Source of the DNA: Thermoplasmatales archaeon SW_10_69_26
GTDB lineage: Archaea > Thermoplasmatota > SW-10-69-26
Direction of reading: 5' to 3'
Assembly (NCBI GenBank): GCA_003009755.1
Contig: PXUB01000011.1
Coordinates: 1-33,321 of the forward strand
DNA: 33,321 bases
How positions within the stretch are numbered: the stretch's first letter is position 1; each line of letters starts with the position of its first letter. Below, one piece after another: positions 17,256 through 33,321 of this stretch. The position numbers and the translations under genes were made by a program. The notes under the pieces are model-generated. The model was given only the letters and a program-made list of their open reading frames with translations. It was not told the origin of the DNA and made no database searches.

Positions 17256-17382
17256 GCCCCGACTCAGCGTGCTCCGGTTCCGTCTGCAGATATAAAGGCT
17301 TTGCCGAGCGAACCTTGCAACGACCCGCCCTTCGACCGGGTCCGGCCGGGCTCCTTTGTACCAGCGGGGCGCTTGGTCGGGC

Positions 17383-18249
17383 GTGCTCGTCGCAGGGTCC
17401 ACCGCCTTCGACACGCTGGCCCGCGTCGAACGGTTCCCCACCGAGGAGGAGGCCATGAAGGCCGACGAGATCGCCTCCGGTGCCGGCGGCTGCGGCGCCA
17501 ACGTCGCCCGCGGGCTGGCCCGCCTGGGCCACGAGCCGCGGCTTCTGTCGGCCGTCGGAGCGGATTTCGCCGATAGTTCGGCCAAGCAGGCTCTCGAGGG
17601 CGACGGCGTGGATCTGGGACGGCTGGTGCGTGTCGAGGACGAGCCGACGGCCGCGGCGATGATGGCCACCGACGACACCCTCCAGCAGACGATCATCTAC
17701 GACGAAGGGGCCACGCCCCGCATGCGCGAGCTCGAGCCGATCGAGGCCGAGCTGGGCCACTTCGCGCCCGGCGAGGTAACCGCCTACCCCGAGCTGATGG
17801 CCGCGGTCGACCGCGTCGTCTACGATCCCGGCCAAGAGGTCTTCTACCGCCCCACCGAGGAGGTGATGGCACCCCTGGACGAGGTCGACGTGCTCGTCGT
17901 GAACGAGCACGAGGCCGAACAGCTGGCCCCCGCCGTCGGCGGGCTCGAGACGCTGGCTGACGAGCTCGAGGGCCTGGTCGTCACGCACCAGGGAGGCCAG
18001 CACGTCTACCAGAGCGGCGACCGTGTCGAGCTGGACGCCGTGGAGGCCGACGTCGTGGATCCCACCGGCGCCGGGGACGCCCACTGCGCGGGCCTGGTGC
18101 ACGGGCTCGCCGAGGGTTGGCAGCTGCCCGAGGCCTGCCGGTTCGGGAGCGTGGTGGCCGCCTGCGCGATCGAGAGCGTCGGCGCTCAGCGCGGCCTGCC
18201 GACGCGCGACGAAGCCCAGGCGCGGCTCCCAGGTGCCAAGAAGACCTGA
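17383..18249 (+). CDS. PfkB/ribokinase family carbohydrate or nucleoside kinase
   Basis: GGCGANVARGLARLG, VGAD, YDPG, VNEHE and DPTGAGDAH motifs. Start uncertain (17356 or 17383). Confidence 0.93.
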   Translation: MLVAGSTAFDTLARVERFPTEEEAMKADEIASGAGGCGANVARGLARLGHEPRLLSAVGADFADSSAKQALEGDGVDLGRLVRVEDEPTAAAMMATDDTLQQTIIYDEGATPRMRELEPIEAELGHFAPGEVTAYPELMAAVDRVVYDPGQEVFYRPTEEVMAPLDEVDVLVVNEHEAEQLAPAVGGLETLADELEGLVVTHQGGQHVYQSGDRVELDAVEADVVDPTGAGDAHCAGLVHGLAEGWQLPEACRFGSVVAACAIESVGAQRGLPTRDEAQARLPGAKKT

Positions 18250-18260
18250 GGCTCGCCACC

Positions 18261-18784
18261 TAGCCTGCCGGACGTTATCTGCTCAAGTCTCGCCGCCCTC
18301 AGAGGTTCGAAGGCGCGGAGCGGGACCGAAGGTCTGCCCGGATCAAAGATCCGGGCTCTCCCGAGGATCCGCCCTGCGGGCAGGGATCCTCGGGACTTGC
18401 CCCGAAGGGCAAGTCGAGGGATTCGCGACAACGCCTGCCACAGGGCCAACCGCGGAAACGACGTCATCGGGCGTCCGAGCAAGCCCCCCTTGTGTGGGGC
18501 TTGCGAGCTGTACGAGCCGCCCCGGGCGGCTCGTGCTTGTGAGGTCGGCCTCGCGGAGAGGCGCAGCACGGATCGACGATCCGTACGCGCCACAGACGGC
18601 CGGTGGCCGTCTCTGGCGCCGGCGTGAGGCGCCCCATCTCGTTGTCGCGCCCGGAGATCTCGCCCGAGGGCGATCTCCGGCGCGTCCGAACCCCCTGTGG
18701 GACGGCCGGAGCCTCGTCGGCGTTCGCCGTCTTGGAGCTGCTCGCCGAGGGGTCCGAGGGCCCTCGCCCGTGGCCGTCGGCGGG
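18261..18784. ncRNA. Large, highly structured non-coding element of unknown family (copy 1); structured RNA or ssDNA element
   Basis: About ten hairpins (e.g. 18336-18356, 18359-18395, 18394-18415, 18479-18504, 18510-18536, 18568-18584, 18589-18617, 18651-18680). Long-range helices 18424-18433/18640-18649 (perfect 10 bp) and 18296-18317/18681-18701. No credible ORF. Homologous blocks recur from 33152. Confidence 0.6.
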
Positions 18785-18790
18785 AACACC

Positions 18791-18796
18791 TTTAAG
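18791..18796 (+). promoter_or_regulatory. TATA-like box upstream of aRF1
   Basis: TTTAAG immediately after the structured element, about 100 nt upstream of the aRF1 ATG. Confidence 0.55.
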
Positions 18797-18893
18797 GGGC
18801 TCCACATTCAGGAGGAGATGGATGCCCTGCGTCCGTCGCCGTCCCCGTTGACGAGCGGCCCGGGCCAGGGACGCCACCTTCTGGGGGTCCTGC

Positions 18894-20147
18894 ATGGCCA
18901 GCGACGAAGAGCAGAGCGAGCAACGTGCCCGCTACGAGTTCAAACGCATCCTCGAGGACCTCGAGGGCGTCCGGGGCAGAGGCACGGAGCTCGTGTCCCT
19001 GTACGTGACCCCGGACAAGAACCTCAACGACGTCCGCAACCAGATCTCCAGCGAGATCGGCGAGGCCCAGAACATCAAGTCTAAGTCCACGCGCAAGAAC
19101 GTGACCTCGGCGCTCGAGGTCATCGAGGGCGCGCTCAAGAACTACAAGCAGACGCCCGAGAACGGGCTCGTGTTCCTCGTCGGCCACAAGTCCGCCAAGG
19201 GCGATACAACCGAGATGGTCCGCCACGTCCTCGAGCCGCCCCAACCCGTGCCGGTCAACCTCTACCGCTGCGACAACACCTTCCACCTCGACCCGCTGGC
19301 GGGCATGATCGAGGACGCCGACGCCTACGGGCTCGTCGTCATCGACCGCTCGGAGGCCTCGATCGGGGTCTTGCGAGGCGAGCACGTCGAGACGCTGCGC
19401 CACACCCAGTCGATGGTCCCCAGCAAGCACACCGCCGGCGGGCAATCGCAGCAACGCTTCGAGCGCCTGATCGAGGAGGCCGCTCAAACCTACTTCCGAG
19501 ACGTCGCCGAGCAGGTCAACGAGCTGCTGTGGACCCGACGCGACAAGGAGATCCAAGGCCTGCTTGTCGGGGGCCCCGGCCACACGAAGGACGAGTGGCT
19601 GAAGACCGGCGAGCTCCACCACGAGCTCGAGAAGAAGCTCGTCGACACCTTCGACACCGGGTACGCCGACGAGTACGGGCTCAGCGAGCTCGTCGACCAG
19701 GCCCACGACACGCTCGAACAGCGAGGCCTGACGCGCGAGAAGGACCTCGTGGACGAGTTCCTCGCCGAGGTCCGCCAGGAGGGCGGCAAGTTCAGCTACG
19801 GGGAGGACCAGGTCCGCAAGCGCCTGCGGATGGGCGCCGTCGAGACGCTGTTGCTCTCCGAGTCCCTGCGACGCATCCGGGCCGACCTCGTCTGCCCCGA
19901 GTGCGAGCACCGGTTCCAGCGCACCACCGACGAACCCGATCAGTTCCGTCCCTCGCCCGCCGCCTGTCCCGAGTGCGGCGAGGAAGCCGAGATCGAGGCG
20001 GAGACCGACGTCGTGGCCGAGCTCACCGAGCTGGCCGACCAGCGAGGCACCGACGTCGAGCTGATCAGCGAGCAAAGCGAACAGGGCCAGATGCTCGTCA
20101 ACGCGTTCGGCGGCGTGGCCGCGATCCTTCGCTTCCGCATCAGCTGA
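18894..20147 (+). CDS. prf1: Peptide chain release factor aRF1 (eRF1 family)
   Basis: GRGTELVSLY, NIKS, YRCDNTF and GGQSQQRFER motifs; C-terminal CPEC..CPEC zinc-ribbon insert; FGGVAAILRF. Confidence 0.98.
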   Translation: MASDEEQSEQRARYEFKRILEDLEGVRGRGTELVSLYVTPDKNLNDVRNQISSEIGEAQNIKSKSTRKNVTSALEVIEGALKNYKQTPENGLVFLVGHKSAKGDTTEMVRHVLEPPQPVPVNLYRCDNTFHLDPLAGMIEDADAYGLVVIDRSEASIGVLRGEHVETLRHTQSMVPSKHTAGGQSQQRFERLIEEAAQTYFRDVAEQVNELLWTRRDKEIQGLLVGGPGHTKDEWLKTGELHHELEKKLVDTFDTGYADEYGLSELVDQAHDTLEQRGLTREKDLVDEFLAEVRQEGGKFSYGEDQVRKRLRMGAVETLLLSESLRRIRADLVCPECEHRFQRTTDEPDQFRPSPAACPECGEEAEIEAETDVVAELTELADQRGTDVELISEQSEQGQMLVNAFGGVAAILRFRIS

Positions 20148-31859: not shown

Positions 31860-32300
31860 ACGTCGAGTTTGGCGGGCTCGATCGTTGATGTCGTTGTTGC
31901 TCGCCGCGTCCTCGACGTCGCTCGTGGCGTAGCCGTGGCTGGACCAACGGCATCCCTGGTCGTAGTAGTCCCGCAGGCTGTCGTCCTCGCCATCTTCGAC
32001 CATCTCCGTCAACCGGTGGTCCGAGGGGTCCGAGGACTCGCCGTCGGAGGCGGAGTCCACGACGTCCCACAGCGTCCTCGCCACGTTCCACTCGTTGTCG
32101 TCTCCCTGGGCGGTGCTTCCGCGATCGCTGCTCTCGATGTCGTTTCCGTTGTCGTCGTCCCCGTCCGCTCCCGGAACCCCGTCGTTGCCGAGGCGAGTGC
32201 TTCGTCGTGACCGCCGTCACCGTCGGGCCCGGGATCGCCATCGACAACGCGTCCAACTGCGTCGGCATCGCGACCCAGGCGCCAAGCGTAGCCTCGAGCG
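31860..32300 (-). pseudogene. Probable degraded fragment of a secreted Asp-rich protein gene
   Basis: A coding-like acidic frame (LGNDGVPGADGDDDNGNDIESSDRGSTAQGDDNEWNVARTLWDVVDSASDGE..NNDIN) follows an in-frame TGA with no early start; the acidic reading appears to continue upstream in another frame. Boundaries approximate. Confidence 0.4.
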
Positions 32301-32362
32301 GGGCCTTGGCGATCCAGGAACCCACCGCAACGGATAAACTGGGCCGTGGGCTACGGCCGGGC

Positions 32363-32998
32363 GTGCGCGTGCTCCTGCTGCTCTCCGGCGGCATCGATTC
32401 ACCCGTGGCTGGACGCTTCTTGCAGGAGAACGGCCACGACGTCGCCGCCTTGCACTTCAGCCAGGAGCCGTTCACCGACGCCTCCCCCGAGGACAAGTCG
32501 GCCACCTGCGCCGACCACCTCGGCATCGAGCCGTTGTGGGTGTCGCGCGCCGGGGAACGCTTCGGCGAGCTGACGAGCACGTGCGAGCATCGGCTGTACT
32601 TCGTGCTCTCCAAGCGGTTGATGCTCGCCGCCGGTGACCGCCTGGCTCGCCGGGAGGGCTTCGACGCGATCGCGACCGGCGAGAACCTCGGCCAGGTGTC
32701 CTCGCAAACCCTGCAGAACCTCTCCGTCATCCACGAGGCCACCCAGCTCCCGGTCCTGACACCGCTGTTGGCCCTCGACAAGGACGAGATCGTCGACGCC
32801 GCGCGCGAGTTCGGCACCTACGAGATGTCGACCGGGCCGGAGATGTGCGACACGCTGGGCCCCGACCATCCGGCGACGGCCGCCGACGTCGACGAGATCA
32901 CCGAGGCCGAGGAGGCCACCGACCTGGACGAGATGGCAGCCGACCTCGTCGCCGAGGACAACCTCGCCCGCGTCCAACCGGAAGCCGTCTCGGCTTGA
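32363..32998 (+). CDS. ThiI-family PP-loop sulfurtransferase/adenylyltransferase domain only (no NFLD/THUMP)
   Basis: MRVLLLLSGGIDSPVA, KRLML, IATGENLGQVSSQTLQNL, PLLALDKDEI..GTYEMS..GPEMC..HPAT. GTG at 32363; the upstream extension in the ORF track looks non-coding. Confidence 0.85.
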   Translation: MRVLLLLSGGIDSPVAGRFLQENGHDVAALHFSQEPFTDASPEDKSATCADHLGIEPLWVSRAGERFGELTSTCEHRLYFVLSKRLMLAAGDRLARREGFDAIATGENLGQVSSQTLQNLSVIHEATQLPVLTPLLALDKDEIVDAAREFGTYEMSTGPEMCDTLGPDHPATAADVDEITEAEEATDLDEMAADLVAEDNLARVQPEAVSA

Positions 32999-33151
32999 GG
33001 TCAGCCGACGACGAGCCCAGCGAGACGCTCTCGATAGGCCGCAGTGGATCCTCCTTACCTTACCGATGCTCCCCTAGGGCCGGTCTGTGAATCGTGGTGC
33101 ACGCCAGGTTTGCGCCGAACGCAGAGATGCGAGGGAGCCGACCGACGAGCT

Positions 33152-33321
33152 TAGACTGCCGGACGTGTTTTGCTTACGCTCTCGCGCCGGTCTCGGGAGA
33201 CCGGGCACGGTCTGCCGAGAGGACGAGCCCGGAGGGCTCGTGCGAATGAGCGAGGCAAGGTCGCGGAGCCCGAGGAAGGAAACCCCGAAAATTTCCGACC
33301 CTCCGGTGGTTGCAGGCCCGC
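33152..33321. ncRNA. Second, diverged copy of the structured non-coding element, probably truncated by the window end
   Basis: TAGACTGCCGGACGT is 14/15 identical to 18261-18275. Followed by TGCT..TCTCGC, GACC..GGTCTGCC and ACGAGCC-loop-GGCTCGTGC..TGAG..GGC..TCGCGGAG in the same order as copy 1; hairpin CCGGTCT-CGGG-AGACCGG. Confidence 0.55.

Follow-up and report, generated by a model that had tools for sequence, protein, structure and literature searches.

Correia elements (CREE) of Neisseria are inverted-repeat elements of about 100–160 bp that are flanked by TA, lie between genes in roughly 100 or more copies per genome, and have known effects on promoters and RNA processing; to our knowledge, they have no known resident transposase. 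Insertion sequences of the IS630 family usually have a length of about 1.1–1.2 kb. IS630 and ISY100 insert into the dinucleotide TA, which is duplicated in the process, and the N-terminal domain of the transposase binds the inverted repeat (PMC2170065); a title cited in the reference list of the same paper names 5'-CTAG-3' as the target of IS630. MITEs are described as small elements without open reading frames that have terminal inverted repeats resembling those of insertion sequences, a short target duplication and many intergenic copies, and whose transposase is provided in trans (PMC3718332). The elements SMN1 and SM3A of Sulfolobus, which depend on ISC1733 and ISC1058 and not on an IS630-type element, are given as archaeal examples (PMC3718332), and MITEs are counted among the mobile elements of archaea (PMC13343696). 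Here we report a family of gene-less MITEs with about 100 loci in the genome of an uncultured archaeon from halite, which was very probably spread into CTAG sites by a transposase of the IS630 family, encoded either by an element on another contig of the same assembly or by a relative that is now lost or unassembled.

The assembly comprises 2.82 Mb on 49 contigs, is 95% complete and has a G + C content of 69%. The stretch of DNA that was analysed (33,321 nucleotides, hereafter called the window) is an entire contig (C11), and parts of it were contained in 10 metagenome runs of halite from three studies; no RNA data set containing this DNA was listed. The gene of the archaeal release factor aRF1 (18894–20147, plus strand; Pfam eRF1_1/2/3) identifies the host as an archaeon. 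The window carries two copies of the repeat. One begins at 18261, downstream of the gene of a PfkB-family sugar kinase (17356–18249, plus strand; Pfam PF00294, E = 9e-45) and upstream of the aRF1 gene, with 11 nt between the stop codon of the kinase gene and the TA of the repeat. The other begins at 33152, where its TA is separated by 153 nt from the stop codon of a gene encoding a ThiI-type protein (32207–32998, plus strand; Pfam PF02568, E = 4e-45), and takes up the final 170 nt of the contig (33152–33321). A promoter-like box located before the aRF1 gene, at about 18779–18800, is kept in a relative from another genus of the same family (G002). ARAGORN placed an 89-nt tRNA-Val(CAC) on the minus strand at 17851–17939, within the reading frame of the kinase, which is probably a false call. 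In four halite runs, the summed contig depth at 18028–19083 and 32812–33321 was 4–30 times that of neighbouring genes; the raised depth fits multi-copy repeats, and other strains or species present in these samples may have contributed to it.

The family is defined by a terminus of 34 nt, TA-GACTGCCGG…CTCTCGC, of which 110 were detected in the genome with a profile that covered the initial 36 nt, 95 of them with E values of 0.001 or less. The termini begin with TA in 101 cases and lack it in 9, although TA was partly built into the seed of the search; the base outside TA was not part of the profile. This base is C at 82 of the 101 TA-starting termini in a genome with 69% G + C, which points to CTAG as the target. 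Neighbouring termini on opposite strands form 31 inverted pairs with lengths of 100–1345 bp, 24 of which have TA at both sides. All but two of the pairs are gene-less elements (29 pairs, 100–672 bp), the others being a 1132-bp insertion sequence on contig C32 and a 1345-bp element on contig C36 with a nested gene of the IS6 family. The remaining 48 termini are unpaired, and 26 of them face a contig end that is at most 614 nt away.

Masking of the assembly with a library of the 29 complete copies yielded about 100 loci, which together cover 21,592 bases (0.77% of the assembly). As many as 25 of the 98 contig ends, including the right end of the window, lie inside a repeat of this family. The first search pattern, TAGNCTGCCGGACGT, had 20 exact matches in the genome and 36 matches when up to one mismatch was allowed, and the pattern ACGAGCC-N3-12-GGCTCGTGC had 10 matches, 9 of which were located within family repeats. 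Both patterns were derived from a first-pass annotation of the window, which had anticipated additional copies across the genome, and these were found. The same annotation had observed that the similarity between the two window copies begins sharply at TAG, which is explained by TA being the duplicated target. A link to tRNA genes was not apparent, with only 1 of 57 located within 300 nt of a family locus.

Family copies occur in both orientations, and several of them, among them the copy at 18261, are one-ended. At least six end subtypes were distinguished, and the two arms of an element belong to different subtypes. Alignment of the arms showed that all types are homologous over about 78 nt; the score of the B arm against the short form of the A arm, taken beyond the terminus, was reached by 8 of 2000 shuffles. 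No two fully assembled copies exceed 95% identity at full length, a ceiling that is biased because the assembly would break at identical copies, and arm pieces elsewhere in the genome are 97–100% identical to the arm in the window.

Three of the copies have unusual interiors. The longest (C36:10814–12158; locus L032, 315–1659; 1345 bp) contains the gene of a 238-aa IS6-family transposase, which matched NF033587 with 84 bits, below the cut-off of 125; the copy owes its length to this IS6-family element, which is nested in the MITE. In a 672-bp copy (C14:16713–17384), the A-type arm is split by about 340–350 nt that are not part of it and may be a nested insertion. A 201-bp copy (C7:46837–47037) has a run of 8 N in the middle of the element, so that its interior is only partly readable.

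The copy at 33152 is the left arm of an element that runs off the contig, and of its termini the left one alone is present. It opens on the plus strand with an A-type terminus (33152–33185; 34 nt with the duplicated target TA at 33152–33153; profile E = 9e-10), which is followed by a short sub-terminal linker (33186–33193) that is kept in the long and short forms of the arm according to their alignment. Next comes a 53-nt double-hairpin unit (33194–33246), which is present in long arms but not in short ones, then a conserved sub-terminal segment (33247–33286), and finally the start of the variable interior (33287–33321), which the contig end cuts. Copies diverge past 33286, and loose contig ends behind this position were found in four runs. 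The segment 33247–33286 has its homologue in the sub-terminal part of the B, F and E arms on the opposite side, and the inverted repeat therefore reaches about 78 nt. In 10 other copies, 33152–33193 is joined directly to 33247 and the positions that follow, which identifies 33194–33246 as an indel; the short form is also visible in three runs, as loose contig ends behind 33193. The 135-nt arm (33152–33286) has 20 more full-length copies with an identity of 79–96%.

The remainder of the element at 33152 is absent only because assembly ended within the repeat. The window and contig C45 overlap by 29 nt, the end of the former being identical to the start of the latter, which is the sole link of this kind, and C45 continues up to C45:614, where it has a B-type end with its TA, so that joining the two contigs would yield an element of 755 bp. 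The join is unproven, since the two flanking genes are on different contigs in all five of the relatives compared. None of the longest of the approximately 1,350 metagenome pieces listed crosses the copy at 33152, one contig (X1) ending at 33178. An empty site for this copy was not found among the metagenome contigs, where a search with the ThiI-type protein returned two distant loci with 26–29% identity.

The copy at 18261, which is likewise on the plus strand, begins with an E-type terminus (18261–18293; profile E = 1e-4), in which TA occupies 18261–18262 and C at 18260 completes CTAG. Over 80 nt, this copy is 96% identical to copies at C14:19422 and C18:3874. The terminus is followed by a sub-terminal arm (18294–18336) that is homologous to F and B arms, with scores reached by 0 of 2000 shuffles in each case, and by a 64-nt double-hairpin unit (18337–18400) that is also present in F-type arms but not in other E-type arms. 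The hairpin-rich interior (18401–18700) includes a further 64-nt double-hairpin unit (18477–18540), which is unique within the assembly, and ends in a hairpin at 18700 without a right terminus. The region 18590–18700 is 97% identical to the interior of a complete element (C35:18816–19391), which completes the hairpin that is cut at 18700 and continues with a full right arm, both of which are absent from the window. Since the likeness stops in the middle of a hairpin while the complete element continues, the right arm of the 18261 copy was deleted. No right terminus was found for this copy, and 18701–18778 had no match elsewhere in the genome.

Metagenome contigs document forms of the 18261 locus without individual units, joining 18336 to 18401 in four runs, 18476 to 18541 in three runs, and 18559 to 18615 in two runs. 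A single contig (X2; depth 4.55), which was placed at 90% likeness, passes from 18263 to 18701 with two other letters in between. In this allele of a related strain, the element is absent and CTAG is present at the site. The comparison covers this one site, and as the 18261 copy lacks a right end, the allele has no clean TA at the junction on that side. The same two flanking genes are only about 140 nt apart in the genomes G002 and G003, compared to 644 nt in the window.

The similarity of the two window copies to each other is more limited than had been proposed. The first-pass annotation aligned them in three collinear blocks, and the corresponding strings are present at the positions that it gave. 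The best local alignment of 33152–33321 with 18261–18700 consists of the first block alone (33152–33185 versus 18261–18293), with a score of 32 that was reached by 4 of 1000 dinucleotide shuffles, and a profile of 21 other copies, from which the window copies had been excluded, matched 18261–18293 with an E value of 0.0016. With this block removed, the similarity of the loci does not exceed chance, since 279 of 1000 shuffles gave a score as high as that observed (22). In the 33152 copy, the second and third blocks fall on the double-hairpin unit 33194–33246. The second block had been mis-paired: in the alignment of family arms, 18324–18338, which is part of the sub-terminal arm, aligns with 33272–33286 and not with 33199–33216. 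The counterpart proposed for the third block, which involves the unit 18477–18540, is not supported, as CGCGGAG (at about 33262–33268) aligns with about 18315–18321 instead of 18552–18558; a profile match at 18501–18558 was marginal (E = 0.1).

Copies of the family differ by 74 indels of 30–400 nt, many of which are double hairpins of 51–65 nt. Target duplications around the hairpin units were sought and rejected, as the mean length of flanking repeats at the 74 indels was 1.2 nt, compared to 0.8 nt in controls. The possibility that the units are dispersed repeats in their own right was also rejected, since the four that were tested are located only in family arms or nowhere else; the unit 33194–33246, for example, always occurs in the same context inside its arm type and is therefore not dispersed alone. 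We read the double-hairpin units as gains and losses that mark subfamilies, not as a second mobile element, and the approximately 170 extra nucleotides of hairpins in the 18261 copy, which had been pointed out in the first-pass annotation, are better read as subfamily-specific indels of such units. It is improbable that the units (33194–33246, 18337–18400, 18477–18540, 18560–18614 and others) were made by a separate process of hairpin-pair gain and loss that acts in the spacers of this genome and for which MITEs are the preferred substrate, or that the interiors have been co-opted by the host, downstream of genes, as signals for RNA 3' ends or RNA stability.

The candidate source of the transposase is located at C32:89545–90676 (locus L031, 546–1677) and has a length of 1132 bp, counting both flanking TAs. 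Its transposase contains the domains HTH_33 (72.6 bits), HTH_32 (48.7 bits) and DDE_3 (81.1 bits), all of which scored above the Pfam cut-offs. The two halves of the protein matched the IS630 model NF033545 (299 positions) at positions 9–133 with 96.6 bits and at positions 138–293 with 94.2 bits, each slightly below the cut-off of 100 bits, which applies to the whole protein. The gene consists of two frames that overlap at eight consecutive A and must be linked by a -1 shift, so that the element lacks a single intact transposase reading frame; the break may represent programmed -1 slippage or a dead gene. No other DDE_3 gene was found in the assembly, and a query with the transposase protein matched only this element.

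Between its left and right ends, the C32 element has 27 of 34 positions in common. With the ends of the MITEs, the two ends share 24–27 of 34 positions in the case of types D and E (22–27 across E-type ends), and 20–25 of 34 in the case of types A, B, C and F; for the two copies in the window, the values are 23–24 (A-type end at 33152) and 22–23 (E-type end at 18261). Judging from these ends and from the transposase family, the C32 element is probably the driver of the MITE family. Since the A-type end at 33152 shares only 23–24 positions with the ends of the insertion sequence, another transposase may drive it or may have driven it.

With its TA flanks and its length, the C32 element resembles IS630 of Shigella sonnei, ISY100 of Synechocystis, and the IS630/Tc1/mariner group in general. 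It differs from IS630 and ISY100 in the -1 shift at the run of eight A, in its host, an uncultured archaeon, and in its sequence: among 331 records of IS630 transposases from plasmids, all below 60% identity, none exceeds 36% identity to its catalytic half. A search of species representatives with peptide patterns revealed no close relative of the transposase, and among 20 genomes of the class, just 2 had a relative, a distant one with 31–35% identity.

Each element consists of two inverted arms with 34-nt termini that enclose a variable, hairpin-rich interior without genes, and the observations suggest the following mechanism. A transposase of the IS630 family, encoded by the full-length element C32:89545–90676 or by a relative now lost or unassembled, would bind the termini via its N-terminal helix-turn-helix domains, excise the element, and reinsert it at the TA within CTAG, whereby TA would be duplicated. 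The termini with their TA and CTAG context, the inverted pairs, the transposase family, the relatedness of the ends and the allele without the element are observed; we infer that movement is by cut and paste and that the C32 transposase may still be acting on these ends. The 18261 copy has lost its right arm by deletion and would no longer be able to move.

Whether the family is still moving is the only point that separates this explanation from one in which the repeats are fossils: they would have been spread by an IS630-type element in the past, the C32 gene would be a frameshifted pseudogene, the copies would be decaying, and nothing would be moving now. We consider this possible but doubtful. 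It agrees with the reading frame that is broken at eight A and with the presence of only one transposase copy, but programmed slippage classically has just this arrangement, in which the -1 frame comes after a run of A. The ceiling of 95% on identity between full-length assembled copies would also suit decaying repeats, yet short reads do not allow copies that are nearly identical to be assembled, 25 of the 98 contig ends lie inside the repeat, and the arm pieces of other copies reach 97–100% identity to the arm in the window. The 9 termini without TA and the one-ended copies, including that at 18261, are further signs of decay, against which stands the related strain that carries the 18261 site without the element.

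The two other explanations concern the nature of the repeats and have to account for their hairpins. The first-pass annotation had offered, as one of two readings, a paralogous family of structured non-coding RNA genes, in which the hairpins would be the functional product and the copies paralogous genes. The copies do lie in intergenic DNA and are predicted to fold strongly (z = -2.96 for 33152–33321 and, as DNA, z = -8.15 for 18261–18700), but strong folding of a single strand is expected of elements that are built from inverted arms, and hairpins are usual for MITEs for the same reason. Among the 24 pairs predicted across 21 arms, there is one clear compensatory change, located in the second hairpin of 33194–33246 (A-U in 12 and G-C in 9 of the 21 copies), and one change from G-C to U-G; 22 of the 24 pairs are without a double change, and covariation contributes only -0.27 kcal/mol to the consensus fold. 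The support for selection on structure is thus weak, and the argument from conserved stems with variable loops was weakly founded, the second and third blocks having been mis-paired between the two copies. No Rfam family matched at the gathering thresholds on either strand of the whole window. An RNA gene family would also have to be reconciled with the use of both strands, with two inverted homologous arms that have TA and CTAG flanks, with lengths of 100–672 bp, with whole hairpin units that come or go, and with the absence of the element from a related strain, and it is extremely unlikely. The annotation's other reading, a non-autonomous mobile element, is supported by the inverted termini, the TA and CTAG flanks, the IS630-type element with related ends, and the allele without the element.

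A mobile origin of another kind would be that of REP-, BIME- or REPIN-like repeats or of palindromes derived from IS200/IS605 elements (PATEs), which a Y1 (HUH) transposase mobilizes in the form of single-stranded hairpins. The G + C-rich hairpins in intergenic spacers and the gain and loss of double-hairpin units of 52–65 nt recall this class. However, the 95%-complete genome has no match to Y1_Tnp (PF01797), to which control genomes responded, and the long terminal inverted repeats and TA flanks of the present family are features that the class itself does not have. In addition, the hairpin units are absent outside the arms, and the repeats that flank the 74 indels do not exceed chance. There is very little probability that these repeats belong to this class, and MITEs spread by an IS630-family transposase remain by far the better description.

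Relatives of the family were sought in other genomes. A BLAST search with a 139-nt arm had no match in any of 40 relatives, and the pattern of the 34-nt terminus had none in 185,579 species representatives, among which the source genome is possibly not included. The sequence CTAGNCTGCCGG occurs 75 times in the source genome, compared to 9 times for a reversed control, and 0–6 times in each of the other 20 genomes of the class, near the values of their own controls. A single match was found in the genome from another genus of the same family (G002; locus L085, contig C8, at about 22388, minus strand), namely a hairpin-rich element of about 590 bp, both ends of which resemble the ends of the C32 insertion sequence and whose two flanks are TA and TT. 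Relatives of the family thus exist, and its expansion is specific to the source genome among those that were searched.

Like other MITEs of the IS630/mariner type (e.g., the TA-flanked Stowaway elements of plants), the present elements are small, flanked by TA and without open reading frames. They differ from known MITEs in their sequence, in the unlike subtypes of their arms, and in interiors that are unusually rich in double-hairpin units. They can also be likened to Correia elements, by description only, with the difference that a candidate insertion sequence is present in the source genome. Based on the sequences that were searched, the repeats appear to be MITEs, an ordinary type of element, and the sequence family itself appears to be new.

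A conspicuous repeat of an uncultured archaeon from halite is thereby given a concrete and ordinary explanation, and the finding opens no new biological question. Repeats of this family account for a quarter of the contig ends of the assembly, including that of the window. Hairpin-rich spacers in the source genome should be checked for TA-GACTGCCGG termini before new RNAs or repeat classes are proposed, and the 34-nt terminus, together with the single IS630-type transposase, is a candidate genetic tool for salt-adapted archaea.
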